DNA from: Nitrosopumilaceae archaeon
GTDB taxonomy: Archaea > Thermoproteota > Nitrososphaeria > Nitrososphaerales > Nitrosopumilaceae
DNA: 64,000 bases
Direction: 5' to 3'
Assembly (NCBI GenBank): GCA_965214835.1
Contig: CBDCCK010000002.1
Coordinates: 2,400,001 to 2,464,000, forward strand
Positions within the stretch are counted from its first letter, which is position 1; each line of letters begins with the position of its first letter. The notes below the pieces were generated by a model. The model worked only from the letters and a program-made list of their open reading frames with translations. It was not told the DNA's origin and searched no databases. Both the position numbers and the translations under genes were made by a program. Positions 26,599 to 54,088 of the stretch are shown piece after piece.

Positions 26599-26707
26599 CG
26601 CACCCGTGGGATGCAGACAGGCCCGCATCATGAGCGAACCATGGAAGATGCGTTGAACGCAAAACAGAGGGCGCACCCGTGGGATGCAGACAGGCCCGCA
26701 TCATGAG
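26599..26707. repeat. 36-bp exact direct repeat x2 around a 37-bp unique spacer
   Basis: CGCACCCGTGGGATGCAGACAGGCCCGCATCATGAG at 26599-26634 and 26672-26707. Confidence 0.95.
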
Positions 26708-26966
26708 GCTTCCACTGTCAGGCCCCCCATGCAGGGGCGCAACGGATCCGATCTTGGGGGCCTGGGTTGTGCGATTGCGTTCCCGTACCGGCCATGCACG
26801 AGAAGCCACGTGCATGTGTGGGGGCCGATCCGTCATGCTGGCTGCGACGGGGGCTTTAGCACAGTGAAAGCCTGTGCCTAATGGGTCGGGACAGGCTGCC
26901 GTGTGCCGGCCGTGCGGTCTAAAACTTAAAGCAGACCGTGTCCTACCGGTTTCATTGGAGAGGATC

Positions 26967-28703
26967 ATGATACTTGTGCTGGCGGCACTGGCGGCACTTG
27001 TCCCCGTATCCACGGCGCATGCAGATGCCGGCCAGGATCCGGCGCGGGCCCAGATCACGGCCGCCATGGAGCTGTACGGCGAGTCCGGGCTTGAGGCCAT
27101 AACAATGCACAGCGACAGGGAGCACTATCCGTTTGTGCTTGACAGGGGCGGCAATGTGCTGGCACACGGGGCAAACCCATCCCTTGTGGGGACGTACGCC
27201 ATGGACAGCATACGTCCTGACAAGACGCTGGAGCAGATAAACGCAGAGCTTGACGCCGACGGGGAGGCTAGGATATACTATGAGTTCCTGAATCCTGCTA
27301 GTGGCCGAGACGAGCTCAAGCACACGCTGCTGGTTCTGCATGACGGGTACATCTTTGGCAGTGGAACATATGCTGTCAGGCATGACCCGCCTGCAATGCA
27401 GTACCGGGACGGGGTATTTCTCTCTGCCATAAAGTGCAACGCGCCAAGGGAGCCGTTTCTGATGGACTCTGAGACGCCAGTATGCCTGAGGCCCACCTCG
27501 TACGAAAGGCTCTCAGAGCGCGGACATGATCTGATCGCGTACGGATCCATACCGGACTCGGATTGGGCGATGCACACAGTTACGGTCGGTATACTTGCAC
27601 CCGTCAGCGGCGGTGCTGCCGGGTACGGCCAGGACATAGCGGAGGCGGCAAAGATGGCCGCAGGTGACTTTAACGCGGTGCTAGAGGAGGGCGGCCACCC
27701 GTGGCGCCTTGATGCCACAGTATATGATACGGGTACCGACGGCAGCAGGGAGCTGGAGGGCATAAAGGCGCTAAGGGAGCAAGGAGTCCGGCTGGTCGTC
27801 GGCCCCTCAATTGACATCTTTGAGAGGGATGTGATAGACTATGCCGATGACGGCGGCATGCTGCTTTTTAGCTGCTGCTCGGTCGTGACCGGCTATGCCA
27901 CTGCAGGAGACTCGCTGATGCGCATGATATCTGATCACCGCGGCCACGGCGAGGCGCTTGCCCGGCTTATTGCAGTCGAGGGAATAAAGGTCGTGGTTCC
28001 CGCAGGCAGGGACGGCATATGGGTAACCGATCTCATGGACAGCACGAATGAGGTGTTCATCGAGGCAGGCGGCTCACAACCAGAATCCGGCGAGGGCTAC
28101 GGGGCTGATGGATTTGAGGGGGGCCTGTTCTTGGAGCCAATACTATATGACGCATCCGGACGGTTTGAGCAGCGACACCTTGAGATGCTCTCAGAGGCCG
28201 TGTCCGGTCAGCTTGACACCTACGGTAAAGACAGGGTTGCAGTCATGTTCGTAGGCTTTGAGGAGACATATGACTTTTTAGAGGAGGCCTCAAAGTACGA
28301 GGTCTTGGCCGACGTCAGGTGGTTTGGCGCCGATGCCAACACGGTACCGGCTGGCAGCGCAGAGGCGCTAGGGTTTGCAGAGGCCGTCCAGTTTACCTCC
28401 GTCCAGCCCACTGTTCCGTACGGCGACGTGACCGAGGACGTGGATGCACGTATGGCCGAGATCCTCGGCAGGCAGCCAAGCGTGTATGCCTTCTTTGCGT
28501 ATGACGCCATGCGCCTGATCGGAGAGGCAGTCCTTGACGGTCAGACCAGCTCCGCCCCCGATGTCGCAGACGGGATCGTCCAGGCGGCCTCAGAGTACGA
28601 GGGCGCAAGCGGAGGCAGTATAGAGTTTAACGAGGCAGGAGACCGAATGGAGACTGCCTATGCCGTATGGCAGATCCAGGACGGCGCGTGGGTACGGCCC
28701 TGA
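26967..28703 (+). CDS. Secreted Cache-domain + type I periplasmic-binding-protein fusion
   Basis: Signal peptide; Cache (YPFVLD..G.VLAHG.NP..YEFLNPASG..K..HDGYIFGSG); small Cys domain; branched-chain amino acid PBP fold (VGILAPVSG, YDT, VVGP, AYDA, G.IEFNEAGDR). Confidence 0.85.
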   Translation: MILVLAALAALVPVSTAHADAGQDPARAQITAAMELYGESGLEAITMHSDREHYPFVLDRGGNVLAHGANPSLVGTYAMDSIRPDKTLEQINAELDADGEARIYYEFLNPASGRDELKHTLLVLHDGYIFGSGTYAVRHDPPAMQYRDGVFLSAIKCNAPREPFLMDSETPVCLRPTSYERLSERGHDLIAYGSIPDSDWAMHTVTVGILAPVSGGAAGYGQDIAEAAKMAAGDFNAVLEEGGHPWRLDATVYDTGTDGSRELEGIKALREQGVRLVVGPSIDIFERDVIDYADDGGMLLFSCCSVVTGYATAGDSLMRMISDHRGHGEALARLIAVEGIKVVVPAGRDGIWVTDLMDSTNEVFIEAGGSQPESGEGYGADGFEGGLFLEPILYDASGRFEQRHLEMLSEAVSGQLDTYGKDRVAVMFVGFEETYDFLEEASKYEVLADVRWFGADANTVPAGSAEALGFAEAVQFTSVQPTVPYGDVTEDVDARMAEILGRQPSVYAFFAYDAMRLIGEAVLDGQTSSAPDVADGIVQAASEYEGASGGSIEFNEAGDRMETAYAVWQIQDGAWVRP

Positions 28704-29008
28704 CAGGCGGCGAGTCTGGAACATGCGTCCCGGCACGAGCAGCGATACGGGTTCATCCCCAAACAACGGGGCACAGGTTTGCACCTGGGCGCACCGGAAC
28801 CGGGAGGCCTCAGGTGCGATCAGGAAAGGCGACCCAAAATGGACGTAGGATGCCGGCGATGGTGCGACATAATTTTCATATAATACACAAGACACAGAGC
28901 ATGTCAATCCTTAAAAGCGGGTTTTTCCAACCATCAATGCCAAACATGGTGGTATCAAAATCATAATGGGTAACCGTTGTAGTTATTCTAGCAGACTAGG
29001 GGGATCAG

Positions 29009-31716: not shown

Positions 31717-32961
31717 CTACGGCGACCTTGTCCCTGCCGCCCCGTCACGGTTCACCAAAAAGCTCTTGAGACCCCAGGCGATCAGCTGGAATACGGCGGG
31801 CGGCAGGTGCGGATTCCCTTCATAGGCATCATAGTTGAAGTCGACTAGGGCAGCCTCCAGTATTTCGCGGTTTTTTGCGATTACAAAGTCCTCGCGTTCT
31901 GATCGCGAGGCCCCCTCGGCCTCCATTTTTTTCAGTCCGGCCCGAATCTCATCTGCCAAGGCAAGAATCCTGCGGCGGGTTGGGTCAAGATGTCCTTTCG
32001 GGTTGATTTTGAAGGCAATGTCGGTGTCCCTGATCACGACCCGGAGGTTTTCGGGCTGCAGATCGTACGGGGGGTCGGATCCTTGCCTGCCAATCCCCTC
32101 CCCTGCACGCGGTTCCTTGTGCTTCTCTAGGCGGTTTAACAGATCAGATCTCATCCTGCCGGCATGTGCTCCCATGTGTCCAAAGTCAGATCCTACTGTA
32201 CCAGCATCCCTTTCCATTCCCTCAAAACCAGCTCCTATCAGGGCGACGTTCTTTTTTAATTTCTCAAACTCGGATCTTACCTTGTCAGCACCCCTTTCTA
32301 TCCCCTCCAAGTCATATTCTATTGTGCCAAAATGAGTTGGTTTTTTGGTGATTTTATGTGGCGTCTTTCCAGATTCCTCGAGCATGGATTGCATCATGTC
32401 GACCTCCTCTACTATTTTCATGAAGATGGATCGTGCCTTGTCAATCCACCCTGCCATTTTCATATACTTTATTCCTGACTCCGCGTAGTCAAATCTTAGC
32501 AGGGTGACTTCTGCCTCTATTCCCTCAAACTCGGATCTTACCTTGTCAGCATCCTTTATCACTTCCCCAAATCTGGATCTCATCAATCCGACAATCTCCG
32601 CCAATTCCCCAAATCTGGATCTTTCTGTATCTGTCTTCTTTTTTAACTCATCAGTCTGGGATCTTACCAGGCCCGCATTCCTCCCCGTTTCCTCAAAACC
32701 AATACTTGCCATGTTAATATGCATCATCATCTCCTCAAAGTCAAATCCTCCAATGCGGTCGTTTCCTCTCATTTTCCTGATCTTGGCTAGTGCCAGACCT
32801 GCCTCCACTTCCATTTTCCTGAGTCCTACTTCCATTTTCTTGAGGCCGGATCTTGCCATGCCTGTCTGCCTCTCCACCTCCTCAATGACTGATTTTATTC
32901 TGTAAGACTTTTTTTCTATTTCCGTTATGAATCCCAGGTCTGATTTCTTGCTTTTTGGCAT
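31717..32961 (-). CDS. Hypothetical coiled-coil protein with 14-residue periodicity
   Basis: 414-aa ORF; repeats such as LEGIERGADKVRSE/FEKLKKNVALIGAG/FEGMERDAGTVGSD. Confidence 0.7.
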   Translation of the reverse strand: MPKSKKSDLGFITEIEKKSYRIKSVIEEVERQTGMARSGLKKMEVGLRKMEVEAGLALAKIRKMRGNDRIGGFDFEEMMMHINMASIGFEETGRNAGLVRSQTDELKKKTDTERSRFGELAEIVGLMRSRFGEVIKDADKVRSEFEGIEAEVTLLRFDYAESGIKYMKMAGWIDKARSIFMKIVEEVDMMQSMLEESGKTPHKITKKPTHFGTIEYDLEGIERGADKVRSEFEKLKKNVALIGAGFEGMERDAGTVGSDFGHMGAHAGRMRSDLLNRLEKHKEPRAGEGIGRQGSDPPYDLQPENLRVVIRDTDIAFKINPKGHLDPTRRRILALADEIRAGLKKMEAEGASRSEREDFVIAKNREILEAALVDFNYDAYEGNPHLPPAVFQLIAWGLKSFLVNRDGAAGTRSP

Positions 32962-33838: not shown

Positions 33839-33865
33839 AAATTTAGCCCAAGGACATCCAAACTA

Positions 33866-34567: not shown

Positions 34568-34676
34568 AATTCTTACACCAAACTCTGCGAAAATAGAACC
34601 AGGGGATGCCGATCTTGGCCAAATGGCAAGATACTGTTAGCTCGATATCCTTTTATCCTAACTAGCGGAGGCTAGC

Positions 34677-36070
34677 TTGATGGCAGCTGGAATCGACGAC
34701 ATTGCATTGTACGTGCCAAAGCTGTACGTAGATGCAACGGATTTTGCGCAGGCACGTGGACTGGATCCGGAAAAGCTGCAAAAGGGCCTGGGGGTCTCTC
34801 AGATGGCAATCGCGGATACAAACCAGGATCCGGCATGCCTTGCTGCCAACGCCTGCCTGAAGATCATGCAGAAAAACAGGCTCTCCCCGGAGGATATAGG
34901 AAGGCTGTACGTCTCGACAGAGTCGTCATTTGACGAGTCAAAGGCAATGAACTCCTTTGTGGTTGGGATGCTAGAGCAGGTCTACGGCCAGGGCGCATTT
35001 GAGCACTGCGGGGGGGTCGAGACAAAATTTGCATGTGTAAGCGGCTCTTATGCACTTTATGATAACGTCAACTGGATCAGGGCAGGAGAGGCCGAGGGAA
35101 AGGCGGCCCTAGTCGTGGTGTCCGATATCGCAAAGTACGACATTGGCTCTAGCGGCGAGATGACCCAAGGTGCAGGGGCGCTTGCAATGCTGCTAAACGA
35201 CGAGCCAAGGCTACTGGCGTTTGATCCCAAGGTCACATCCACGTCGATCAGTGACGAGTATGACTTTTACAGGCCGTTTGGAAAGGAGACTCCGATCGTA
35301 CACGGTCAGTACTCCAACCTGCTTTACCTGATCCAGGTAAGAAAGGCGCTAGACGCATACAAGAAAAGGGCAATATCAAATAACCTCGTTGAGCTAAAAG
35401 ACGGGGAGTCGATTCTGGATCATATCGATTACATCAACATGCACCTGCCATACAGCAACATGGGCAAAAAGGCGCTGGCATACCTGGTAAGGCATGAATG
35501 GAGGACGCTTCCGAGGTGGAAGAAGATAGTCGAAAAGATCGGAATGGAGGAGCCGATCCCAAAGGACTCGAGGGGCACCGTCGAGTCGGTACTGGGCGAT
35601 GCGGAATTCATGGCAAGGGATCACGAGTTTACGAGGCTGTTTACGCACACAGAGGAGTATCAGGAGGTCTACGAGTCAAAGCTGGCAAGCTCCCTGATTG
35701 CGTCGAAGATGATCGGCAACCTGTATACCGCATCACTGTACCTGGGATTCAGAAGCAGCCTGGAGTTTGAGTACCGAAAGGGCGCGGATCTGGCAGGCAG
35801 GAGGATAGGATTCGGATCATACGGTAGCGGGAGCAGTGCAATGGTCTTCAGCGGCGTAGTCCAGGAAAAATACAGGGAGATCGTACGGGAGATGGACTTT
35901 GAGAGGGAGCTTGGCCCGCGAAAGAGGCTCAGCCTGGAGGAGTATGAGGACCTGCACGAGAACAGGCGCAGTCCGGAACAGTCGATCCTAAACACCAGCC
36001 ACGAGTTTGTCCTGATAGACGTAAAGACGGCCCCCGACTCGCGGGGGGAGAGAAGATACCGCTTCAATGA

Positions 36071-36074
<4 letters not shown>
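34677..36074 (+). CDS. Hydroxymethylglutaryl-CoA synthase
   Basis: GIDDIALYVP, KFACVSG, EMTQGAGA, DFYRP, HLPY, GNLYTASL, SYGSG. Confidence 0.92.
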
Positions 36075-37311
<1,237 letters not shown>

Positions 37312-37375
37312 CTAGCATGATGGCAAATCGCTGATTAACCTACCGCTTGGTTATTAAGAAAAGAGGCGGCAGGGA

Positions 37376-38695: not shown

Positions 38696-38717
38696 CCCCT
38701 CGCTGAGGCGGGGTTAA

Positions 38718-38828
38718 GTAACAGGTCGGGCTCTGGAAGCTCAGGCGTGAGTTTTATCACCTCGGAGGTCTCTCCTAGACAGATTCGTGCCTGAGATCAG
38801 GAGCAGCTTCCAGAGCCCGACCTGTTAC
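38718..38828. mobile_element. 111-bp IS66-derived MITE between bioA and bioB
   Basis: Perfect TIR GTAACAGGTCGGGCTCTGGAAGCT; 8-bp TSD GGGGTTAA. Confidence 0.92.
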
Positions 38829-38874
38829 GGGGTTAACAATTAAGTACTCCCGCACAGGATCAGGCATCAAACAC

Positions 38875-41073: not shown

Positions 41074-41220
41074 GACTGGCCTGCGAGCAGCCCAGATAAA
41101 AAGTAACCTAGCCTGCCCAGTCTTCCCAGTAGCTCAGTGAGGCACCAGTAGAGGTGGGCTCGGGCATCATCCGATGGTCTTACAGTGTCTGAGCGTGTTC
41201 TTGAATCACTGCCGGTACGG

Positions 41221-41301
41221 GGTCACCTACCCTCATCAGCTAGGCACGAATCAGCATGCATGATTGTGATTTTTGTGCCTAGATGGCAGGGGGACGTGAC
41301 C
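41221..41301. repeat. About 80-bp dispersed hairpin repeat (best-preserved copy)
   Basis: GGTCAC..CTAGGCAC...GTGCCTAG..GTGACC; related copies near 1946, 13312, 18289, 33654 and 53851. Confidence 0.7.
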
Positions 41302-43341: not shown

Positions 43342-44038
43342 ATGTGCCTATCCAGCCTGAGATCAATGCTGCCAGAGACTGTATCCTCAGAACAGCGCAC
43401 CCCAATCCAGTACGTCGTTCCAGAATGAGGGGCATAAAAGTCACCCAACCTGAGAAGAAACACCTTGTCCTCGTTTAAAACGGTAAACTCTTCGGGAACA
43501 AAGATACGTATGTGGGTAAGTATGTTATCCGTACCATAGGTGCCAAGCTCACTGTGTGTGGCAGTACCGTTTGGGTGATACCAGGATACCGTGTACGGTA
43601 TTGAAACCGTCTGGCCTACCGAGATCGAGCCGGGAAACTCGACGGTACTCAGAACCGGATAATGCTTTTCAATGCCGTGTGCCTTGGATTCTCCAATGCC
43701 AGAATAGCTGTATTTTTCAGGCAGTACGTATGCATTAGAATTCGAAACCACGATTCTGCCCAACCCCCTTTGTTCCAGTTTTTTGGCAGTCTCCTTGCTT
43801 ACGCAGGCAGGCGTCCCTCCAGTCATCTCCATCAGAATCTTTGAGTCCCTGCACTGTACCTGTTCCAGTGGCACCCCATGTGCGTGCTGTACCATTGGCG
43901 GTTCAATCTCTGCAAACGCTTCCGTTGCTCCCAATCCGACTGCCAACGCCGCCAGCATCACCACCACTTTTGCGTTCTTGTAAGTCATTGCATATCTGCA
44001 CGTCACTCTGCTATGTGATCCCACGAGTACATAAGACC

Positions 44039-45377
44039 TGGTGAGGACCCCGCTAGAATAGGAACGCTTTTTTTCGCACACTTTTTGAGTCAGGAGGTCG
44101 AATCACAAATATGACCAAGAAAACATGGAGTACGCAGGACAAGATAGGGATAGTCATGGAGCACATCAACACCAACATCGAGACGGCAGAGCTGTGCCGC
44201 CGCCACAACTGGCCCCTAGGACGTTTTACCAGTGGAGGGAGCGCTTTTTGCAGGCCGGACGCGCCTCACTGTCAGGCAGGGGCCACAAGTCAACAGAGGA
44301 GCGGCAGCAAAAGGAGATCGAGTCGCTCAAGAAAATAGTCGGAGAGTACGCCGTGGCCAATGCGGTATTAAAAAAAACCTTGGAGGCAGGCAAAAGGTGA
44401 TGGCCGCAACCGAGCTGAAGAGCAAGGGATGGAGCACACGCACATCACTGCAGTACAGCGGGGCAACCAGGACTGCACTGTACTACGAGAAGACGCCCAG
44501 AAAGGTGTTGCCTGACAGGCAGACTGTCATGCATGTGGAACGGATTGGTAAGCAGAGGCCTACATACGGCACGCGCCGCATGGTAGCCCAGATAAGACGC
44601 CAGACCGGCGTGCCGACAAACCGCAAAAGGATACAGCAGATATACCGCAAAATAGGCTGGATCACGCCTAAAAAGACCAAAAACGACATAATCCGGGCCG
44701 GTAAAAGGGGCAGGTTCAAGCCCACAGGACCAAACCAACTGTGGGAGACTGACATCACGTACGTCTGGTGTGGCGTTGACGGGTGGTGCTACTGCTTTAA
44801 CGTAATCGATACGTTCACCCGGAAGTGGATAACATACGTATTTGACACGCAGGCCACCGCACAGGTAGCAGTCGAATCGCTGACAAAGGCAGTCTCCACG
44901 ATTTCGGCAGACGAGGCGCGCGGCCTGCTGGTCAGAAGTGACAACGGCGTCCAGTATACGAGCCGCGAATTCAAGGAAAGCATGAAGGCGCTTGGGGTAA
45001 GGTGTGAGTACATCTGGCACAACACGCCCGAGCAGAACGGACATGTCGAGTCATTTCACAAGACTTGTGGTCAGGGCAGCCCCCGGCAAGAGTGGTGGAT
45101 CGAGCAGAACGGACATGTCGAGTCATTTCACAAGACCCTCAAAAAGGAGTACGTCTGGCCGCACGACTTTGCCAGGTTCCAGGATGCAGAAGCCGTCCTG
45201 GCAGAGGCGTTTGCGGACTACAACCAGGACAGGATCCACTCGGCGCTGGGATACCTGACACCAGACGAGTTTGTCCGAAAAACCCAGAAAAGACAGGAGG
45301 AGGTGCCTCAAAAATGAGCGATCAATGTGTGCATAAAATGTTGCCAAAATCGTTCCTACTCATAGGGGTCCACTCCA
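44039..45377 (+). mobile_element. IS3-family element (orfA frameshifted; orfB with a 72-bp in-frame insertion)
   Basis: TG...CA imperfect TIRs; orfA from 44111; A8 slippery site near 44370; orfB WETDITY, SDNGVQY, NGHVESFH, YN..RIHSALGY. Confidence 0.9.
45029..45136. repeat. 36-bp exact duplication around a 36-bp foreign insert inside IS3 orfB
   Basis: CGAGCAGAACGGACATGTCGAGTCATTTCACAAGAC at 45029-45064 and 45101-45136. Confidence 0.95.
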
Positions 45378-45871
45378 CGGATACGGCATATTTGACAACG
45401 CGACTACAGAAAACGCCCTCAAGGTGCTTGACGGGGCCATGCAGAAGCACGGCAGGCCCGCCTCCATAATGACGGACCACGGAAGCCAGTTTTACGCAAA
45501 CGAAAAACAGGGTGCAAAGAGGGGGCACAGCGAGTTCGAGGAGAGCCTAGAGGCCCTAGGCATACGGCAGGTCCTTGCCGGGGTGCGCCACCCGCAGACA
45601 AACGGCAAGGTCGAGAGGCTGCACGGCGAGATACAGCGCAAGCTGCACGAGTTTGAGGATATCATGATGAGAACAAGCGATCCCATGGATCTGTTCATGA
45701 AATGGTACAACTACGACAGGCCCCACATGTCCCTTGACTGGGATAACCAGGAGACGCCGGCGCAGGCATATGAGCGCAAGATGCCCCCTGCGGGCGAAAC
45801 GGTCATAGATGGGCAGACCGGGGAGGAATATCATGTCAGATAGGGGGGTGAACTACTTTTCGGATCCCACA
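45378..45871 (+). mobile_element. IS481-family 3' remnant
   Basis: TDHGSQF, HPQTNGKVERLH, YNYDRPHMSL; end GGGGTGAACTACTTTTCGGATCCCACA. Confidence 0.8.
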
Positions 45872-45922
45872 CACAGAACCACTACGCACAATCTTTTTTT
45901 ATAGGCCAGTGGAACAACAAGC

Positions 45923-46060
45923 ATGTCTGGAACAAAGCAACTAGAATCCCCGCCATTGTCTGACGAGGAGATACGGGACATCAAAGAGTTTTACGCCCAT
46001 CCCGAAGGACACAAAAAAGGAACCCTTCAAGATCTGCTTGATGAACTGCACAGAGTATAG
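45923..46060 (+). CDS. Probable 45-aa antitoxin (below the ORF-track cutoff)
   Basis: MSGTKQLESPPLSDEEIRDIKEFY...TLQDLLDELHRV*; acidic; ends 2 bp before the RelE-like gene. Confidence 0.7.
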   Translation: MSGTKQLESPPLSDEEIRDIKEFYAHPEGHKKGTLQDLLDELHRV

Positions 46061-46062
46061 GA

Positions 46063-46326
46063 ATGTGGGAGTTAATCTGGTCTGAAAGATTCATCAAGCA
46101 GTACAAAAAACTGGACAGTAAAATAAGACAGAGTGTAGATGATGCAATTATCGTCCTTGCAACATCTGATAGTCCGTCTGCCCTTGGCACATACAAATCC
46201 GGAATGAGAACGTTTTCCTATGAGTTGGGCCGCAAACATAGAATCATATACTTTATCCAATATCAAGCTGGAGCAATAGAACTGCTACGAGTGTGTGACC
46301 ACAAGTCAGCATACGGTAAGGACTGA
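46063..46326 (+). CDS. RelE/ParE-superfamily toxin
   Basis: MWELIWSERFIKQYKKL...RIIY...LLRVCDHKSAY. Confidence 0.8.
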   Translation: MWELIWSERFIKQYKKLDSKIRQSVDDAIIVLATSDSPSALGTYKSGMRTFSYELGRKHRIIYFIQYQAGAIELLRVCDHKSAYGKD

Positions 46327-46544
46327 CTCCATCTCACACCGGAGACGATCCCATCCGGACTCGCATCATACCGTGACCTGCCCCGTATGGCAACTGGACC
46401 TTATGCGCAATCGACCGCGATTAAAAATTCCGCATGGTTTTCCAAACACAGGTGCGTTGATCAGATCAAACCACTGCATGCTAATGTGGATCCATGACTG
46501 CGCGATCCGCGACCCCTGCCTCCATACACGCTATCCAATACCCT

Positions 46545-48173
46545 AGACCTTATGCGTAATCGACCGGATCGAAATATTCCGACGGTGGCCGGCCACACAT
46601 GCAAGGCTGACGGCATCACATGACGTGTATGAGGACGGCACAGTCCGTATATAGTGCAGCTACGAACCGTTCCAGCTGGTAAAAACTACAATGTCGTGCG
46701 GCATCGTGTGGCGCCGCAATGCGCTCCGTATCGTGATATCAGAACCCACGCATGAGCTTCTTGTTCCGCTTGTCCCACAGCAGCCTAAAGTTGGCAAGCC
46801 CGGCCGTCACCTGGAACTCCCTGTCGAACTCCTCGGCGGTCCCGTCGTACGGATCACGCATCCGCTTGTACTGCTTTATCCGTCCTATGGCGTGCTCTAT
46901 CGTCACCCTCTTGCTGCTTATCCTCCTGTTCTGCGCTTTCTGTTTCTTTGTAAGCTTGCCCACTTGGCTTCTTGTCGGGCTGCACGGATCTGGCCCCTGG
47001 ATACACCTCCTCGATTCCCATGTATGCCAGGTCAGAGAACATCTTTACCTTCTCGTCCTCGGGGTGCTTTCTGTTGCTGCGCATCCTGGCAGTCAGGATT
47101 CCCAGATCCGGTGGGTTGTTCTTTATCATGGTGAGGTCGTGCACGCTTCCGGGCGCCGACTTGCATATATCGACAGTCCCTTCTTGCTGGCAATCACCTG
47201 GGTGTTGCGCGTAAAGCTCTTCTTCTTGCCCGAGTATGCCCCCCTTTCTTGGCTCCTTGTTTGTGGGGCGCTGTATGTCGATGTGCGTGCCGTCTACAAT
47301 CACGGTCAGATCCGGGACGATCTCCCTGAGCCCCTCGATCGTGCGGGCGTTTCGTATCTTTCGTGATACGGCGTCCGGCGTGGGCAGTATCTTGAGAAAT
47401 ATCATGTCGCAATACCTGAGGTACCTGCATACCGTGCTCTGGTCTATGCCAAAGAACGCCGCAAGCTGCTCCTGTGTCGGGTTTCCGTACTTGCGCATCA
47501 GCGACATCAGCAGGGCGTGGCGGTAGGACAGCTTGCACCGGTTTCCAGGCAAGTTGTCCTCGTCTTCTGAGAACAGGGGGCCTTCTGTGTGCTTTTTGGC
47601 AAGCTTCGTAAACCGGTCGGATGTATGGTCAAGCTGGCGGCGGTCCATCGACGTGGTGGGCTGCAGGAACCCGCCGCCGATTATGTCCTCGAGCACCTCG
47701 AGCCTGTGCATGAACGCGGCGTTGTTTACGGTACGCCTGTCGTCATCTCAGGTTGCGGGCCACATCTGGCGCTCAGCGTCCAGCCGCCGCTCCAGCTGCC
47801 CTATCCTCCCCTGATCCCGCTCGTGCCTCCTGCCGTCCTGCCTGCTCTTCTTCTCGTACTCTCTGATCTTCTTCCTGTACTGCATCCTCTCCTTCCTGCC
47901 CCGCGCCTTCTCCCTCCTGTACTGCACATTCTCTTTCTCGTACTGCTCGATTCTCTTCCTCAGCAGTCGTATCAACTCGGTCTCGGACTTTGCCATTACT
48001 CTTGTGCGGGAATGGATCCCGGATCTAAATCAACCGGATGAAAATACCTGCAGGTTTGATCAAATATTTTCCACATAATGAGGCGCCGTCGCGCGTGCGC
48101 CGGCCCTGACTCGCCCCATTTGTAGCCCGTGCGCCGGGGGCATCGCCGCTAATTTCGTTTACGCATAAGGTCT
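46545..48173 (-). mobile_element. IS5-family element, degenerate inverted copy of 3930-5647
   Basis: Same TIRs; transposase broken by a stop codon and frameshifts. Confidence 0.9.
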
Positions 48174-48263
48174 ATAGATGGTTACAGTGCGCAGCTGTCC
48201 AAAAAGATACTTTGAAGCAAACCTACAGCTTGTATCGTACCTGCTAAGAAACGAGGATTTTTG

Positions 48264-48372
48264 GTAGCAGCTCGGGCTCGAAGCTCAGGCGTGAGTTCTG
48301 CAACCTCGGAGGGCACTCCCGGGCATATTCGTGCCTGAAATTAGGAATGGCTTCTAGGGCCCGAGCTGTCAC
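48264..48372. mobile_element. IS66-derived MITE (diverged)
   Basis: GTAGCAGCTCGGGCTCGAAGCTCAGGCGTGAG...GCCCGAGCTGTCAC, similar to 38718. Confidence 0.75.
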
Positions 48373-48374
48373 CG

Positions 48375-48762
48375 TTAGTGTTTTAGATTTGTTTTTACTT
48401 TGTCAAGAATTCTTTCTGCCCACTTTATGGTATTTTCTGCCTGGCTGTCACTCATCAAATCCGGTTGATACTCATGCATTTTTCAGACCAAGCAGTGAGC
48501 CAAACTGTCTTTCCATCTCTTTGAATTCCGGGCCAGAAAGGATGCCTTTTACCAGCAACAATACATCGGCATGTGATCCTGAGGCACGTTTGCTTAGATG
48601 AAAGATTGTAAGTGCATCCAATGCGTTAATTGCACTGTGTATACAATTCATCACAGTGCTGTCATATGCATGTCGTTCTAGTGCAATTTTTGCTAGTTGC
48701 ATCGAGTTTTCTGCTTTTGTGGTGTGATTTGCATATTTTTGAGAATCTACGTCTCTAGTCAC
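48375..48762 (-). pseudogene. HEPN-domain toxin frameshifted in its catalytic motif
   Basis: HSAINALDALT..HAD..LKNA* then, in a shifted frame, EYQPDLMSDSQAENTIKWAERILDKV. Confidence 0.8.
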
Positions 48763-49376
48763 CGCATCATACTCTCCAAGCCCTTGCCACAAATCATGAC
48801 ATGGTCTGCAACGATTGAACGGATCAAGTCGCTTTCCTTTTTGGATTGGAGTTCTTTTTGCGAGAGCGTCATTGGTGCAAGCTGGGCATGAAACACTTCT
48901 GCCACTTCTACCAGTGCGTTTGAAATTATTTGGCTTGCGGCGTCAAAATCGTTTGATATGACAAGTATGTCGACGTCGCTATCTGGCTTCTCCTTACCCT
49001 TTGCGACACTTCCAAACAGCGCAGCAGAGACGATGACTTTCTTTCTGTCAAGATTTTTTTTCAGAACTTTGAGCAGCTCCTCCAAAGCATCTTCTTCGGT
49101 TTTGAAGACAGGTTCGATTACCTTGTTGAGGATGTAGTTTTTCCTGTTCAGGGATAGCTGGTGCGACCTGCCAACGGGCTGAACCGTGACGATGCCAAGA
49201 TCCTCAAGATCACGAATCGTGAGGGCCGCCTCGTTGACAGAGACATTTGCCGTTCTGGCAAGGCCTCTTTTGGTAAAGATCTTGGCCGGATACCGGACCA
49301 TTGTTCTAAGTACGCGTATGGCTGCCTTGCTGCCCAAGACTTGCTCAAGACAGTCGTGGAATTGCATCACCATCAT
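48759..49376 (-). CDS. wHTH + minimal nucleotidyltransferase (MNT antitoxin)
   Basis: N-terminal HTH; LFGSVAKG...SDVDILVI. Confidence 0.88.
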   Translation of the reverse strand: MMVMQFHDCLEQVLGSKAAIRVLRTMVRYPAKIFTKRGLARTANVSVNEAALTIRDLEDLGIVTVQPVGRSHQLSLNRKNYILNKVIEPVFKTEEDALEELLKVLKKNLDRKKVIVSAALFGSVAKGKEKPDSDVDILVISNDFDAASQIISNALVEVAEVFHAQLAPMTLSQKELQSKKESDLIRSIVADHVMICGKGLESMMR

Positions 49377-49414
49377 GTCCCATATTTAAGACATATGTCC
49401 CATATTTAAGACAT
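49375..49414 (-). promoter_or_regulatory. Tandem 20-bp palindromic operator/promoter of the MNT-HEPN operon
   Basis: ATGTCCCATATTTAAGACAT x2; ATGTC..GACAT arms enclose a TTAAATA box on the minus strand. Confidence 0.6.
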
Positions 49415-49600
49415 AATCTGTGATAAAATGATTGCCGCACGGCAAGGTTTTCTTCCATGGTGCTTTGTGTCTGAGAGATTTCGCATAGACGCGATACGGA
49501 CAATAAATCACTCTGCTTTCTTTTTGACGGATTTTGTTTTTTATTTTATTACCTCGTGTGTTTCAGAGCAAGAAAAGGCAGTCTGGTTTAGAGTCATGGG

Positions 49601-50145
49601 TCTACAATCCAAAAAGTAGTTCACCCCTTCTCCGAGGGTCAAGTCGGTAAGGATCAGATGCACGGGCCTCATGCATGCCACTGGAAACAGGGGTGTGTGG
49701 GTCTGGCGCAAAAGGGCCTAGTAAATACGTCAGTCTTGCACGCCCCAACAACATGAATCTAAACAAGTCCGGCGTACGGTGGATAGTACGCCAAAAGCAA
49801 AAGGGGGACATGACAAACGCCCCAGATAGCCCAGTCCATGAACGTCTCGGTCCGCCGGGTACAGAAACCGTGGGCCCGGCACAGGTCAGGCACCGTACAG
49901 GACATATCTCACCCCGCACGGATGGGAAGGCCCCAGAACGGCATGCCCGGGCGCAGGGAGCACTCGGCAGTCCTCTCGGTGCGGCCCTCCGAGCGCCTGG
50001 GTGCGGCACCACTGCAGGATCTCACAAGGGAGAATACCGGGATTAATATCCTGCGACATACACTGCACGGCGTGCTAAAGGACGAGGAGGTGGCCAGAGA
50101 CGAGCCCAACGGGCGCAGAAAACGCAGGTGGCTGCCCCCGGAGGC
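49601..50145 (+). mobile_element. IS481-family 5' remnant
   Basis: ATCCAAAAAGTAGTTCACCCC is the inverted match of the 45845-45871 end; degraded HTH reading frames. Confidence 0.65.
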
Positions 50146-50203
50146 CGGAGTTCTGGGTGAGATCTGGAAGAACGCTTTAAAAGAGAAACTGCAGCAGTGA
50201 GCC

Positions 50204-50935
50204 ATGGCAGAGGTCGGAATCGCAGTGGCGGTTTTGGCAGGGATCGGCTCCTTTGTTGCGCCGTGCATCCTGCCGATGATTCCGGCATTTCTTGCGTATA
50301 TCTCGGGAACGACGGTCTCGGAGATGAGCCAGAACAGGTCAAGCACGCTGGTCGTAAACAGGGCAAACATCGTCCTCAACGCCGTATTTTTCGTACTGGG
50401 GTTTTCGGTGGTGTTCTCAATACTGGGGGCAGTCATCAACGGGGTTCTTGCAAGCTCTGCAGGCGAGCTTGTGACTGGATTCAACCAGGCAGGCGGAATC
50501 ATAATTGTCGGCTTTGGGGCGTTTTTGCTGCTATCGACCAGGATTGCAAGGTTAAACGTCGAGAAAAAGTTCTTTCCAAAGCGTGACCGGGCAAGCTATC
50601 CGATGTCCTTTGTCTTTGGCCTGGCCTTTGCGGCGGGGTGGACCCCGTGTGTCGGGCCGGTTCTGGGTACCATACTCACGCTGGCAGCCACCACGCCGGC
50701 AATTGCGTTTAACCTGCTTTTGGCATATTCGCTGGGGCTTGGAATCCCGTTTGTGCTGATGGCGGTGTTTTTCTCAAGGGCAAACAGGCTAATCCGCGCA
50801 ATGAGCAGGCATCTGAAGTACTATTCTGCAGTGCTTGGCGCCTTTATCATGGTGCTGGGAGTGCTGGTGTTTTTCAACCAGCTGGCATACATTGCAAACT
50901 TTCCCCTGCTAAACGAGCTGCTCCTACTTGGGTGA
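50204..50935 (+). CDS. ccdA: Cytochrome c biogenesis / disulfide reducer CcdA
   Basis: SFVAPCILP, GWTPCVGP, YSLGLGIPF. Confidence 0.9.
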   Translation: MAEVGIAVAVLAGIGSFVAPCILPMIPAFLAYISGTTVSEMSQNRSSTLVVNRANIVLNAVFFVLGFSVVFSILGAVINGVLASSAGELVTGFNQAGGIIIVGFGAFLLLSTRIARLNVEKKFFPKRDRASYPMSFVFGLAFAAGWTPCVGPVLGTILTLAATTPAIAFNLLLAYSLGLGIPFVLMAVFFSRANRLIRAMSRHLKYYSAVLGAFIMVLGVLVFFNQLAYIANFPLLNELLLLG

Positions 50936-50936
50936 T

Positions 50937-52052
50937 ATGATGAGATCCGAGTACAAGACAGCAGTTGTGATGGTGGCCATAGTCGGGGGAATTGTGGGGA
51001 TAGCAAGCCTGGTCCTAGGGCAGTATGAGACCGACTCGTTCCAATCAGGCACGATACAGACAGATGACGGGATGAGGCTGGCAGACATTGACAAGTCCGG
51101 CCTGAAGAGATCACCGGGAATCGTAGGCATTGAGCAGTACGTCAACACCACCCCAGAGGAGCTGGAGGAGCTGACAAGGGACAGGGTGGTCCTTTATGAC
51201 ATATGGACGTACAGCTGCATCAACTGCGTCCGGACCCTGCCGTATATCACGGCCTGGGATGAAAAGTACTCAGATGAGGGCCTGGTAATAATCGGTGTCC
51301 ACACGCCGGAGTTTGAATTCGAAAAGGAGCTACACAACGTAGAGCTTGCAGTATCAAAGCACGGAATCAAGTATCCCGTCGTGCTGGACAACGACTGGGA
51401 GACGTGGAAGGCCTTTGAGAACAGGTACTGGCCTAGAAAGTACATTGCAGACCACGAGGGGTACATCAGGTACGATCATATCGGCGAGGGCGGATACGCA
51501 GAGACTGAAAGGGTGATCCAGCAGCTGCTCGAGGAGAGGGCAGTCTCGCTGGGGCTCAATGTGGCCTCCGCATCATCCCTGGTGGATCTGCAGGAGTTTG
51601 AGCACACAAGGTACAGGACCCCGGAGCTATACTTTGGATACGAGCTGGCGTTTGGCAGAAGCCAGCTGGGAAATCCCGAGGGGTTCAGGCCCCACGAGCA
51701 GGTGGCGTACACCGTCGCCGGGCCGATGGAGCAGCACAGGTTCTACATGGAGGGAACATGGGAGAACAATCCCGATCACATGAGGCTGGTCTCAGGCGAG
51801 GGTGCAGTCCACCTGCCATATGTTGCAAAGCAGGTAAACATAGTGGCCGCAGGACAGGGCAAGCTGCAGGTGCTGCTAGACGGGGAGCCCGTCCCAGAAG
51901 AGATCGCAGGCAGCGACATCAGGGATGGAATGCTGGTGCTAGACGGCCCTGCCCTGTACAACCTGGTTGAGGGGGAGGCCTCCGAGGAGCACGTCATCCA
52001 GATCGTGGTGGGGGAGGCGGGCTTTGAGATGTACACGTTTACCTTCGGATAG
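50937..52052 (+). CDS. DipZ-like redoxin
   Basis: WTYSCINC, GVHTPEF, NRYWP, TPELYFG, C-terminal YTFTFG. Confidence 0.9.
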   Translation: MMRSEYKTAVVMVAIVGGIVGIASLVLGQYETDSFQSGTIQTDDGMRLADIDKSGLKRSPGIVGIEQYVNTTPEELEELTRDRVVLYDIWTYSCINCVRTLPYITAWDEKYSDEGLVIIGVHTPEFEFEKELHNVELAVSKHGIKYPVVLDNDWETWKAFENRYWPRKYIADHEGYIRYDHIGEGGYAETERVIQQLLEERAVSLGLNVASASSLVDLQEFEHTRYRTPELYFGYELAFGRSQLGNPEGFRPHEQVAYTVAGPMEQHRFYMEGTWENNPDHMRLVSGEGAVHLPYVAKQVNIVAAGQGKLQVLLDGEPVPEEIAGSDIRDGMLVLDGPALYNLVEGEASEEHVIQIVVGEAGFEMYTFTFG

Positions 52053-52142
52053 TGTAACCGGACACCCCTGTAACCGCAGTGACAAAAAACGCAGTTACAA
52101 ATCGGTTTAAAGACCGGATTTTCACCAAGTGTGGGGAAAGGC

Positions 52143-52787
52143 GTGATATCTGACGGATGGAGCAAGCGTGGGGGGGCAAGCATCTCAAGCAGGGTCCTAG
52201 GCGCAGTAAAGCAGGAGGTTCCGTTAAAGAACAAGATCGAGCTTGCACAGAGAAAGCTGTCGGTCCAGATCACAAAGCTGGACTCTATCCAGTCAAAGCT
52301 GCAGAAAAAGCACGACATGATATTTGAGCGGATCGTGACTGCCCAGAGGAGCCACAGCAGCTCCTATGCCAAGGCATACGCCGCAGAACTCTCCCAAGTC
52401 AGGAAGATGAAGACCATGGTGGATGGTGCAAAGCTGTCCATGGAGCAGATACAGCTCAGGCTCAACACGGTATCGGAGCTAGGAGACGTAGTCGTGACGC
52501 TTAGCCCGTGCATGTCCATCATCAGGGGGCTGAGCTCGTCAATCGGCGGAATCATGCCGGAGGCCAACGCATCAATGCAGGATCTCTCATCTGTACTCGG
52601 GGACGTGATGAACAACTCCTCTGTGGGCAGCGTGGAGGTGGGAATCAGCGAGCAGTCCAGTAGCGAGGCAAACTCGATACTTGCAGAGGCGCAGTCAATA
52701 CTGGAAAGCCAGACAAAGTCAAGCATTCCGGACGTCCCATCCGAGCTGCGGGCCGGTGCCAGGCAAAGATCCCAGACCCTGATTTAG
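52143..52787 (+). CDS. Snf7/CdvB-like ESCRT-III protein
   Basis: YAAELSQVRKM, EQIQLRLNTVSELGD, IMPEA, ILAEA. Confidence 0.88.
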   Translation: MISDGWSKRGGASISSRVLGAVKQEVPLKNKIELAQRKLSVQITKLDSIQSKLQKKHDMIFERIVTAQRSHSSSYAKAYAAELSQVRKMKTMVDGAKLSMEQIQLRLNTVSELGDVVVTLSPCMSIIRGLSSSIGGIMPEANASMQDLSSVLGDVMNNSSVGSVEVGISEQSSSEANSILAEAQSILESQTKSSIPDVPSELRAGARQRSQTLI

Positions 52788-53602
52788 GCGCCAAGCTTTT
52801 GGTTGATTACATGAACGAATGACTCAAACGGCTTTGCCCCGCTTACGAGCTCGTATCCCGTCTCGTCGTTGCCTATGAAAAACGCGGGGGTTCCGGTTGC
52901 GCCATACTGGCTCCCCTGGGCCTTGTCTGCGCTGATCTCTGCGTTTATTACGGGGTTCTCCAGGCACGACGCAAAGGCATCAACGTCCAGCGACAGGGCG
53001 CCCGCATAGGTGACCATCTGGCCTGCAAGCTCCTCTGGGCCGAGCCTGTTCCACTCGGACTGCCCTTCAAACAGCATGTCGTGGTAGGGCCAGAACATGC
53101 CCTGCTCGTCTGCGCACTCTGAGGCAATGTGGGCCATCCTTGCATTGGGGTGGATCCTGTCGATCGGAAAGTCCCTGTACACTATGTTTACCGCGCCGGT
53201 CTCGACATAGTTTTGCATTATCAGCGGCAGGGTGTCCTGATGGAACCTGGCGCAGAACGGGCACTCAAAGTCTGAAAACTCTACGATGGTGACCGGCGCA
53301 TTCGGGCTTCCGATCATTGGATCGTCATCCGGGGATACGATCAGCTTTTGCGGGGCGGCAGGGCCTGCGGCAGCCGGCTGCATCCCCGACAGCAGATCCT
53401 GCAGTTGTGACCTTGTGACGTATTCGGGGGCATTTGCGGTGTGTGCCACGAAATACCCAGCAAAGAAGGTGCCTACTGCAATGCCTACAATGGCCGTAAT
53501 CACCAGTCCATAGTATGCGGATTTTTTCATGGTTATATCGGAATGGGGCATTGCAGGCCTTGGAGCCTCCCCAGGGCCGTCATTGTGGGTGTCATCGGAC
53601 AT
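52784..53602 (-). CDS. DsbA/thioredoxin-fold membrane protein
   Basis: DDPMIGSPNAPVTIVEFSDFECPFC, HPNA, GTPAFF, GAKPF. Confidence 0.92.
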   Translation of the reverse strand: MSDDTHNDGPGEAPRPAMPHSDITMKKSAYYGLVITAIVGIAVGTFFAGYFVAHTANAPEYVTRSQLQDLLSGMQPAAAGPAAPQKLIVSPDDDPMIGSPNAPVTIVEFSDFECPFCARFHQDTLPLIMQNYVETGAVNIVYRDFPIDRIHPNARMAHIASECADEQGMFWPYHDMLFEGQSEWNRLGPEELAGQMVTYAGALSLDVDAFASCLENPVINAEISADKAQGSQYGATGTPAFFIGNDETGYELVSGAKPFESFVHVINQKLGA

Positions 53603-53981
53603 GCTAGACTAGGCCTGCTAGCACCGGCTCAAATATTTAGGTATACACGGCAGGGCAGAAGCCGTCCGTCAGGCCAAGCACGCCGCCTGAAAGGCCGCAA
53701 AAACGGCAAAACCATACTTTTTTTTAGGCCCTAATTTACAGGATAATCCTGGCTCCCGTCCCCGTCCACCGTCGGGGGCTGGACGGGTCGCAGTCATTGT
53801 GGCGGGGGCCGTTTTTATCTAAACTAGCAAGCAGCTGTCCCCGGATATGGGGCCGCCTCCCCTTGCCGGCCAGGCATGAAAATCACAGATGCATGCGCAC
53901 TCATGCTTGGCTGCCAGGATGAGGTGGCCTCGTACGTCCCCGGCTCTGCAAAGGCCGGGATCGTCAAGATATGCTACTCCC

Positions 53982-54088
53982 GTGGCAGGGGCGGGGATTC
54001 CGGATGTTTTTGGAAGTCTTTCTTGCATCTCGGGCCTTGGGCGCCTGCGTCATGTGGCAGGGGCGGGGATTCCGGATGTTTTTGGAAG
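53982..54088. repeat. 35-bp exact direct repeat x2 around a 37-bp spacer (36+36 if one terminal mismatch is allowed)
   Basis: GTGGCAGGGGCGGGGATTCCGGATGTTTTTGGAAG at 53982-54016 and 54054-54088. Confidence 0.95.

Follow-up and report, generated by a model that had tools for sequence, protein, structure and literature searches.

The DNA analysed here, referred to below as the window, is a stretch of 64,000 nucleotides from the chromosome of an archaeon of the Nitrosopumilaceae (C2:2400001-2464000, contig CBDCCK010000002.1 of assembly GCA_965214835.1); coordinates of its units are given in window numbering. Three stretches in it, of 36, 36 and 35 bp, are exactly duplicated on either side of an unrelated insert of 36-37 bp. 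When the three units are compared with each other, both the duplicated sequences and the inserts prove to be unrelated. The window also contains a protospacer, i.e. the source of an insert found in a unit elsewhere in the genome. The features are:

26599 to 26634, no strand assigned: unit 1 duplication, copy 1 (identical 36-mer, period 73)
26635 to 26671, no strand assigned: unit 1 insert (spacer), 37 nt
26672 to 26707, no strand assigned: unit 1 duplication, copy 2 (identical to copy 1)
31929 to 31964, minus strand: protospacer of the insert of the isolated unit at C2:3161274 (32/36 nt identical, TTC immediately 5')
45029 to 45064, plus strand: unit 2 duplication, copy 1 (identical 36-mer, period 72)
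45065 to 45100, plus strand: unit 2 insert, 36 nt, self-derived
45101 to 45136, plus strand: unit 2 duplication, copy 2 (identical to copy 1)
53982 to 54016, plus strand: unit 3 duplication, copy 1 (35 nt exact, or 35/36 including base 53981; period 72)
54017 to 54053, plus strand: unit 3 insert, 37 nt, self-derived
54054 to 54088, plus strand: unit 3 duplication, copy 2; this unit is polymorphic

The initial annotation of the window had singled out these loci for their repeat-spacer-repeat geometry, with lengths of 36/37, 36/36 and 35/37, and all three are found where it placed them. It proposed that a Cas1-type integrase, encoded elsewhere in the genome, had inserted short fragments into non-CRISPR sites.

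Unit 1 begins 5 nt 3' of the stop codon of a gene for a PLP-dependent enzyme (25044-26594, plus strand). Its insert has no second match within the genome and, as the sole insert searched there, no exact match in viral_contigs or metagenome_contigs. Unit 2 sits within the open reading frame of an rve-type DDE transposase (44232-45317), as a 24-codon insertion between two domain matches, rve (up to residue 259) and rve_3 (from residue 291); the frame remains open and grows from 341 to 365 codons. The unit 2 insert is 35/36 identical to C2:902180-902215 on the minus strand, with TTG immediately 5', in the gene for the PolD small subunit next to orc1/cdc6. The unit 3 insert shares 36 identical nt with the minus strand at C2:257419-257454, and TTC directly precedes this source on its 5' side.

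The whole 3.22-Mb genome was scanned for direct-repeat pairs matching at 33 or more of 36 positions, at periods from 40 to 200 and with the two CRISPR arrays excluded. The initial annotation had named a broad length distribution as grounds for rejecting its proposal; the distribution is sharply peaked, with 17, 10, 4 and 7 pairs at periods 72, 73, 74 and 75. Almost all remaining periods yield 0-2 pairs, the exceptions being coding-repeat periods (48, 84, 126, 153, 156, 159 and 168). The peak at 72-75 bp is far beyond chance, and decayed pairs form a tail at the same periods. Outside the arrays there are 41 unique isolated units, with periods of 72 (16 units), 73 (9), 74 (3), 75 (6), 76 (2), 71 (2) and 69 (3). 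Subtracting 36 gives insert lengths of 36 (16), 37 (9), 39 (6), 38 (3), 40 (2), 35 (2) and 33 (3), so that inserts span 33-40 nt; they are mutually unrelated. The duplication is exact over at least 36 nt in 31 of 42 candidates and matches at 35/36 in a further 6, and duplications of 37-39 would be chance border matches added to 36. What is duplicated is ordinary DNA, whether coding, IS or intergenic, in a genome that is rich in IS elements and consists of 28.7% repeated DNA. One unit lies within a duplicated segment and is kept in both copies (1921439 and 1966990). About a third of the units (14/41) fall within ~330 kb, or 10% of the chromosome, beside the cas locus, a region that is also the GC-skew minimum.

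That locus begins 16 kb past the end of the window, the cas4/1 gene starting at C2:2480012; the window itself contains no cas gene, as had been said of it. Cas2, Cas3g, Csb1/Cas7g and Csb2/Cas5-6g adjoin the canonical array, which assigns the locus to type I-G. The Cas4g/Cas1g model NF049935 matches over positions 2-546 of 546 (E = 4.5e-227), which indicates a full-length fusion, and this is the sole Cas1-family match in the genome. Profile scores are 754.8 bits for NF049935 (cut-off 560), 630.3 for TIGR02621 (400), 140.7 for TIGR02570 (38), 210.7 for TIGR02165 (45) and 32.1 for the Cas2 model TIGR01573 (24.5). The Cas8g (Csx17) model TIGR04113 has no match in the genome, nor in the control genomes, and with cas8g not found the interference state of the locus is uncertain; no Pfam model matches the 271-aa ORF located between cas3g and cas7g. 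The canonical array consists of 148 identical copies of a 36-nt repeat, with spacers mostly of 37 nt (54) and 36 nt (45), followed by 38 (18), 39 (16), 35 (7) and 40 (4). The array therefore has the dimensions of the isolated units: the duplication equals the resident repeat in length and the inserts track the resident spacer-length distribution, as expected of off-target products of Cas1-Cas2.

The sources of the inserts point the same way. Eleven of the 41 inserts (27%) match elsewhere in the chromosome; the other 30 have no traceable source. Most of the traced ones carry a PAM: TTN occupies positions -3 to -1 in 7/11 self protospacers (5 TTC and 2 TTG; P = 7e-5 at a chance of 0.12 each) and is shifted by one base in 2 others. 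PAM-flanked protospacers are again what off-target Cas1-Cas2 products would have, and 7 of the 11 traced inserts show them. Three of the 11 protospacers lie 1.7-5.9 kb from the global maximum of cumulative GC skew at 900,498 (simulation P = 8e-4), that of unit 2 being the one at 1.7 kb. This maximum is adjoined by orc1/cdc6 and PolD, and is probably the replication origin. The array differs in this respect: its 147 spacers include none with a match to the chromosome, against 11/41 for the isolated units (Fisher P = 1.6e-8). The lone array spacer with any match targets contig C1, with TTC on the same side as for the unit inserts.

Empty sites can be recognized in paralogous DNA and, for one unit, in other assemblies. 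In 24 of 44 candidates, the left flank, one copy and the right flank align across the junction to paralogous copies. Gap-free paralogous empty sites with 97-99% identity are found for 717492, 2201735, 2950434, 2445029 (unit 2 of the window) and 1804843; for unit 2 they are IS copies, e.g. C2:1191615-1191950 (97.0% over 336 nt). Contigs of two independent runs of one study, X1 and X2, join 53981 directly to 54054, skipping 72 letters, with 35 letters fitting either side. This join is the empty-site allele of unit 3, the one unit for which such an allele was seen, in assembled contigs, and at least one unit is thus polymorphic between the sampled populations. In both runs a contig also joins the left flank of unit 2 straight to one lone copy; this contig is not assignable to a locus. 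Contigs of runs X3 and X4 from another study, with 0 differences from the reference, end at 54011, where an assembly graph with k=31 would branch on meeting the duplicated 35-mer. An empty one-copy site, a further mark of an off-target Cas1-Cas2 product, therefore exists.

Target sites show a weak, roughly symmetric preference. Counting the first duplicated base at both junctions (n = 30) gives G 16, C 11, A 2 and T 1 (P = 1.4e-5), GG before and G after the junction occurs in 11/31 units against 1.6 +/- 1.2 at random sites, and the junction motif has a log-likelihood of 153.7 against 94.0 +/- 8.4. The left junction between CC and CG noted in the initial annotation holds for all three window units and is not a genome-wide feature; the preference that does exist is for a duplication opening with G or C and for a (C)AGG flank. 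This flank resembles the ends of CRISPR leaders: ...acggg for the canonical array here, ...tcagg in G004 and ...gcagg in G055. For unit 2, the flank motif and the PAM-side orientation are in conflict, which counts against off-target integration. Likeness to the canonical repeat is marginal (mean best identity 12.3/36 against 11.2 +/- 0.39), so that it explains little of what attracts the integrase.

Similar units occur in related genomes. G066, of the same family, has a type I-G locus with an array period of 71/72, and a 386-kb sample of it contains isolated units at periods 70-72 with duplications of 36-38 nt, among them two three-copy units. In G004, the type I-G locus and its surroundings, sampled over 400 kb, contain a single candidate unit, so owning the system is not sufficient.

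Taken together, geometry, a resident integrase, empty sites and the TTN PAM make it very probable that the units arose by off-target spacer integration, at non-CRISPR sites, by the genome's own type I-G Cas4/Cas1 and Cas2, in essence the initial proposal, here extended to the whole genome. The remaining grounds on which that proposal was to be rejected also fail: the junctions are biased, the genome encodes Cas1, and contigs of independent runs make an assembly chimera improbable. Geometry, empty sites, PAM, integrase gene and polymorphism are observed; that this enzyme made the units is an inference. By analogy with type I-G enzymes, Cas4/Cas1-Cas2 would capture a prespacer of about 36-37 bp, with the Cas4 domain trimming the PAM end. 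Two staggered strand-transfer attacks would then be made 36 bp apart, at a distance set by a ruler spanning the 36-bp repeat, and gap repair would copy the intervening 36 bp to leave target copy, spacer and target copy. The leader, ending in ...GGG, and the repeat would normally steer integration to the array; chromosomal sites with weak mimicry of the leader-repeat junction would have been used repeatedly instead. Lacking a CRISPR repeat, the units are unlikely to be processed into guide RNA, which would account for self inserts being tolerated in the units and absent from the array. Such units would be immunologically silent. As to the suggested mutational or recording system, nothing shows purposeful recording; most simply, the process is a side effect of adaptation, with insertional mutagenesis as its consequence.

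It is unlikely that the units are instead functional neo-CRISPR loci, or a recording or regulatory system kept by use. Work in E. coli, cited in PMC6698737 and bioRxiv 10.1101/148544, did propose that off-target integration can seed new arrays, and the three-copy units of G066 imply that one new site was used for insertion twice. In the source genome, however, every one of the 41 units holds a single insert, and each has its own duplicated sequence rather than a repeat of the resident processing family, so that processing of this ordinary DNA by Csb2 is improbable; moreover, a quarter of the inserts target the host chromosome. In-frame periods are over-represented (25/41 units against 62/147 in the array, P = 0.035), but the same excess would result if insertions in ORFs were under purifying selection.

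Still less probable is another integrase or tiny mobile element, casposase-like or an unknown MITE, with a 36-bp target duplication. A target-site duplication around an insert is a general signature of transposition, and the abundance of IS elements and repeated DNA would suit such an element. The inserts, however, are all different and lack terminal inverted repeats, which rules them out as copies of a single element; their lengths follow those of spacers, their sources are flanked by TTN, and the only Cas1-family match is the type I-G fusion. Casposons are kilobase-sized elements that bring genes of their own, are bounded by terminal inverted repeats and make duplications of about 14-15 bp. 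They share with the units a Cas1-family enzyme and a staggered target duplication, and differ in that the inserts here are 33-40 nt long and mutually unrelated and the duplication is 36 bp, dimensions that also set the units apart from IS elements and MITEs. An artefact of assembly or gap closing, with contig ends duplicated around junk, has a negligible probability: the near-universal perfection of the duplications and the coincidence of 36 bp with a historical read length would fit it, but independent contigs contain a clean empty allele or stop at the expected branch point, one unit is present in both copies of a duplicated segment, traceable inserts have a specific PAM, decayed pairs keep the same periods, the geometry is that of the resident array, and G066 has units at the period of its own array.

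Off-target integration by Cas1-Cas2 has precedents. In 2018, Nivala, Shipman and Church reportedly observed that spacers integrated off-target by the type I-E system of E. coli give rise to neo-CRISPR loci. As far as the accessible account goes, a spacer-length fragment likewise enters a non-CRISPR site with a repeat-length target duplication, and the sites also weakly resemble the leader-repeat junction. Those were rare events in a laboratory strain with an over-expressed integrase and supplied oligonucleotides, unlike the 41 fixed events in a wild archaeon described here, with their 36-bp ruler and PAM-carrying self spacers. A preprint that cites this work (bioRxiv 10.1101/148544) calls the natural evidence, from two other species, only 'circumstantial'.

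The closest enzymes are the type I-G (formerly I-U) Cas4/Cas1-Cas2 modules of Geobacter sulfurreducens and Methanosarcina barkeri (PMC6547450, PMC10504553). In the accessible portions of these papers, the PAM is TTN by experiment and the predominant spacer is 36 bp (PMC6547450), and the Geobacter module over-samples oriC in E. coli; fused Cas4/Cas1, TTN, 36-bp spacers and sampling near the origin are all shared with our genome. The PAM end on the spacer side abuts the leader-proximal repeat in these modules, and the array spacer A1_40 agrees. Integration is described there into a supplied array, at its leader-repeat junction, and the term 'off-target' has 0 occurrences in the accessible text of PMC10504553. 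The Cas4/Cas1 found here falls in the same NCBIfam family, its activity being a predicted one. For Pyrococcus furiosus, the available sections of PMC6698737 describe Cas1-Cas2 attacking non-CRISPR plasmid sites in vitro at repeat-length spacing, where the attacked nucleotide is by strong preference G, with C second, the same order as in our units; the spacing there is 30 bp, and the sites share clearer repeat features than the targets here. The isolated or orphan mini-arrays of Shmakov et al., as far as the accessible text describes them, are short, lie far from cas genes, have repeats that differ from cas-adjacent ones and are partly attributed to off-target acquisition.

Experiments in E. 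coli have already revealed the mechanism; what appears to be new is its scale in nature, its setting in an archaeal type I-G system and an unselected record of self spacers. A full-text literature search, with Nivala 2018, Shmakov 2020 and supplements outside its scope, returned no such units at this density. Until now, off-target integration has been known chiefly from laboratory work with over-expressed E. coli Cas1-Cas2, and about forty events in a wild, uncultivated ammonia-oxidising archaeon bear on its natural relevance. More tentatively, the adaptation complex may be a significant endogenous insertional mutator in this lineage, its scars a selection-free log of spacer capture (about a quarter self, PAM-selected and concentrated at the origin), with integration biased near the cas locus and the units serving as raw material for new arrays. 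If so, the integrase would act preferentially near its own gene or the replication terminus. The inserts would offer a direct view, otherwise hard to obtain, of type I-G capture at a stage when interference has yet to remove self-targeting spacers (27% self, TTN-selected and close to the origin), and the junctions a natural set of targets for learning what the integrase recognizes beyond the leader. For annotation, single repeat-spacer-repeat units are not necessarily degenerate arrays. The units would also show how costly an adaptation module is in terms of mutation, with in-frame insertions of 24 residues in coding genes as part of that cost; where they fall in frame, proteins are lengthened by segments of 24-25 residues.

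Three isolated units lie in the window, each consisting of a target copy, a spacer-length insert and a second target copy outside CRISPR arrays, and each named by its start. The initial annotation had reported them as duplications, and their positions, lengths and periods are all confirmed:

Unit 26599: 36-mers at 26599 and 26672, period 73
Unit 45029: 36-mers at 45029 and 45101, period 72
Unit 53982: 35-mers at 53982 and 54054, period 72 (35/36 if one base is added leftward)

Neither the duplicated sequences nor the inserts are related from one window unit to another. Unit 26599 begins 5 nt past the stop codon of a PLP-enzyme gene, and unit 53982 lies within a 153-aa ORF without a family, with a nitroreductase gene upstream. 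Unit 45029 sits in a DDE transposase, where it inserts 24 codons between the matches to rve and rve_3; the frame stays open and lengthens from 341 to 365 codons. In the closest genome (G002), compared for an empty site, the gene upstream of unit 26599 has 90% identity and alignability ends directly after the stop codon. The insert of this unit has no exact match in viral_contigs or metagenome_contigs, a result of little weight given that only exact matching was used.

Isolated units are demonstrated to have arisen by insertion plus target duplication. For 24 of 44 candidates, a one-copy, insert-free site aligns across the junction to chromosomal paralogues, with no gaps for units 717492 (99.4%), 2201735 and 2950434 (99.1%) and window unit 45029 (97.0%). 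In addition, contigs from independent public sequencing runs were compared over window positions 34600-54500. In runs X1 and X2 (one study), whose sequence differs from the window by some SNPs, a contig runs directly from 53981 into 54054; it lacks the intervening 72 bp, and 35 letters at the join fit either side. This is the empty allele of unit 53982, of the kind that the initial annotation had suggested looking for in relatives, and it is contig-level evidence for one unit. Contigs of runs X3 and X4 (another study) have no differences to the window and end at 54011, probably the point at which a graph with k=31, the presumed build value of these run contigs, would fork as it reaches the duplicated 35-mer. 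Separately, 1420 bp (window 41922-43341) are skipped in contigs of X1, X2 and X3, in which 41921 is followed directly by 43342 and 4 letters fit either side; here the sampled populations are polymorphic for an IS insertion. The skip was not seen in X4; this and similar gaps were treated as uncovered and not counted as evidence.

The genome has 3.22 Mb in two contigs (the main chromosome contig, C2, and the 13-kb contig C1) at 52.6% GC, and the window corresponds to C2:2400001-2464000. It encodes an archaeal amoA, and archaeal ribosomal proteins adjoin the cas locus. All exact direct repeats were scanned for their length distribution, a check proposed in the initial annotation, and it peaks sharply at lengths of 36-37 and periods of 72-75. 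Once the two CRISPR arrays are excluded, pairs matching at 33/36 or more number 17, 10, 4 and 7 at periods 72, 73, 74 and 75, respectively; in the same scan, nearly every other period from 40 to 200 has 0-2 pairs, save a few coding-repeat periods. Curation led from 51 exact pairs to 44 with periods 69-76 and on to 42 candidates, which represent 41 unique events because one unit sits in both copies of a duplicated segment. Among the 42 candidates, 31 have exact duplications of 36 nt or more, 6 agree at 35/36 positions and 5 at 32-34/36; the weak units 2037185 (33/36) and 2209451 (32/36) were kept among the 41. Four tandem-like pairs were dropped from the candidate list, as were seven pairs with periods 66 or 79, C2:35551, which belongs to a local palindromic repeat field, and C2:1736693, a repeat-insert-repeat inherited within an IS family, together with its four 79-bp-period copies. 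Decayed pairs occur as well at periods 73 and 74, which are not multiples of three (5 at 31-34/36 and 5 at 27-30/36), against 0-1 per identity class at most neighbouring periods. Because of this tail at the unit periods, the process is not only a recent one.

A search for a Cas1-family gene and a canonical array, as the initial annotation had recommended, found both, and the locus is type I-G. A 566-aa Cas4/Cas1 fusion (C2:2480012-2481712; 754.8 bits against NF049935, cut-off 560) starts 16 kb past the window end and is followed by Cas2, a 171-nt leader and the main array (C2:2482178-2492954). The array has 148 identical 36-nt repeats, each ending ATTGAAGC, and its spacers are mostly 37 nt (54) or 36 nt (45) long, with others of 38 (18), 39 (16) and 35 nt (7). 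In both repeat length and range of spacer lengths, the isolated units therefore agree with the resident array. Beyond the array lie an IS630 transposase, Cas3g, a 271-aa ORF, Csb1/Cas7g and Csb2. A TIGR04113 search for the large subunit cas8g (csx17) matched nothing, and the control genomes likewise had no match. The 271-aa ORF (L003:3760-4575, C2:2496659-2497474), between cas3g and cas7g, is without a Pfam match and sits at the expected position of the type I-G large subunit. In the main array, the spacer nearest the leader is just 26 nt (C2:2482214-2482239), and the first spacer in G004, another genome with a type I-G locus, is also short (~22 nt, C1 ~1716689 of that genome).

A chromosomal source elsewhere can be assigned to 11 of the 41 inserts, while the other 30 are untraced. 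Three of the sources involve the window or its units:

C2:902180-902215: source of the insert of unit 45029, with TTG
C2:257419-257454: source of the insert of unit 53982, with TTC
Window 31929-31964: source of the insert at C2:3161274

The initial annotation had advised tracing the inserts and looking for a PAM, and TTN lies directly 5' on one strand in 7 of the 11 traced inserts (5 TTC, 2 TTG); it is shifted by one base in a further two, and the last two are partial matches. With a chance of 0.12 for TTN on either side, 7/11 corresponds to P = 7e-5. For the Geobacter type I-U/I-G Cas4/1-Cas2 module, one study gives a TTN PAM and a predominant spacer length of 36 bp (PMC6547450). In these respects the inserts behave like type I-G spacers. 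Three self protospacers, at 902,180, 904,372 and 906,373, are 1.7-5.9 kb off the global cumulative GC-skew maximum at 900,498, which is inside orc1/cdc6 with the PolD small subunit alongside and is the probable replication origin. Their proximity to it has a simulation P of 8e-4, on small numbers; a similar over-sampling of oriC is described for the Geobacter type I-G module in E. coli (PMC6547450).

Chromosomal matches were found for none of the 147 array spacers versus 11 of the 41 isolated inserts (Fisher P = 1.6e-8). Presumably, the functional array is purged of self-targeting spacers, and self-derived inserts would be harmless where no CRISPR repeat permits processing. The sole array spacer with a match is spacer 41 (index 40), which agrees with C1:6366-6401 at 36/37 positions; this protospacer, whose TTC is on the side towards the repeat nearest the leader, is inside a large glycosyltransferase gene of C1. 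Spacer 41 could be self-targeting, or C1 could come from another strain or element. The genes of C1 include an IS66 transposase, glycosyltransferases, a methyltransferase and a laminin-G protein, a content that does not show it to be a plasmid or a virus.

For target-site preference, both junctions were written flank|duplication, and bases were counted in the 15 units with exactly 36-nt duplications (30 junctions). At the first position of the duplication, G predominates (16), followed by C (11) and then A (2) and T (1) (P = 1.4e-5). In the flanks, the favoured bases are C at -4 (15), A at -3 (16), G at -2 (16) and, at -1, again G (13). GG|G is found in 11 of 31 units versus 1.6 +/- 1.2 at random sites. 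The CC|CG junction and purine-A-(G/C) ends that the initial annotation had seen in the window units do not generalize over the 41. A two-orientation EM motif model scores 153.7, compared to 94.0 +/- 8.4 for random sites, and since the motif, although significant, is nearly symmetric, units cannot be oriented by it; PAM-based orientation is obtainable for 9 units only. The flank consensus resembles some leader ends (...acggg| here, ...tcagg| in G004 and ...gcagg| in another compared genome, G055), while three other leaders end differently. The same G-then-C preference is described for P. furiosus Cas1-Cas2 at off-target sites in vitro (PMC6698737). The duplicated 36-mers have marginal similarity to the canonical repeat (12.3 identities against 11.2 +/- 0.39).

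The units may be unevenly distributed: 14 of the 41 fall within C2:2150000-2470000, which is 10% of the chromosome and includes the entire window (binomial P = 2.5e-5, on small numbers and for a region chosen post hoc). This region is directly upstream of the cas locus (2.48 Mb), around the GC-skew minimum (2,358,514), and its repeat content is ordinary. Repeated DNA (at least 300 bp, at least 80% identity) makes up 28.7% of the C2 chromosome and contains 12 of the 41 units, so there is no enrichment; the paralogue figure of 24/44 is higher because that search was more permissive. The genome, at 3.2 Mb, compares with 1.1-1.8 Mb in most sampled relatives of the family, and its size and repeated DNA indicate massive IS-driven expansion.

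The open frames around restored sites tend to be shorter than those at random positions (median 178 versus 320 codons), and frames of 150 codons or more hold 65% of the restored sites versus 80% of random positions. There is an excess of periods that are multiples of three (25/41 units versus 62/147 in the array, P = 0.035), and many such insertions preserve the open frame.

Of 61 sampled genomes in the family, 7 have a Cas4g/Cas1g match above cut-off. Around the type I-G locus of G004, 400 kb were sampled; they contain a canonical array with 36-nt repeats and a single candidate unit, versus ~5.1 expected at the mean density of the present genome (P = 0.037). In G066, a type I-G genome of the same family as the present one, a 386-kb sample contains giant arrays of period 71/72 and isolated units at 2788178, 3036054 and 3100620 with periods of 70-71 and duplications of 36-38, plus a shorter unit at 2987326. 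These periods are close to that of the G066 arrays, so the period of isolated units tracks the local array. G066 also has three-copy units, with two inserts at one new site, at 2939634/2939704 and 2989807/2989887 (its C1:2939634-2939850 and C1:2989807-2990000). The duplicated sequence of the first opens with the last 11 nt of the G066 repeat as printed and is ~1.4 kb from a canonical array; three-copy units may represent arrays in the making or integration out of register at the end of an array.

The likely mechanism, off-target spacer integration, is the one reportedly described in E. coli by Nivala et al. in 2018. Texts citing that work call such events rare and seen under over-expression, with 'circumstantial evidence' in two other species, and off-target acquisition is named as one proposed origin of isolated arrays (citing Shmakov 2020). 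Full-text literature searches, which did not extend to Nivala 2018, Shmakov 2020 or supplements, turned up no account of isolated units this dense, nor of any in ammonia-oxidising archaea or in type I-G systems; the 'ectopic spacer' literature found deals with positions inside arrays. Since the mechanism is known in E. coli and no such density was encountered in those searches, the isolated units would seem to be a new, unusually rich natural instance of it.

Other repeats in the genome are of different kinds. A 39-42-nt direct repeat with a period of 74-79 is in the ~200-bp terminal inverted region of a ~1.4-kb IS-like element (window 57800-57912), with further loci at C2:1308256, 1624026, 2343414, 2692095, 1736693, 922211, 1007590, 2257291 and 2939935. 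It is common to ~20 copies at 70-95% identity, insert included, and travels with the element rather than being an independent event; it could represent sites bound by the transposase, or a single old integration event that later spread. Coding repeats of 21-bp periodicity, rich in AGG, GAG and AAG, are found at window 4144-4395, 7915-8040, 19711-19794 and 47825-47937; an 84-bp-period version is identical at 14 or more genome loci and is therefore part of the ORF of a multicopy element. Finally, the second array (C2:135821-136367) is degenerate and in the opposite orientation, with 8 repeats of two variants and a spacer that occurs twice. A ~30-nt block is common to its leader and the main one, genes resembling VirB4 and VirD4 are within a few kb, and the array may belong to an integrated conjugative element.
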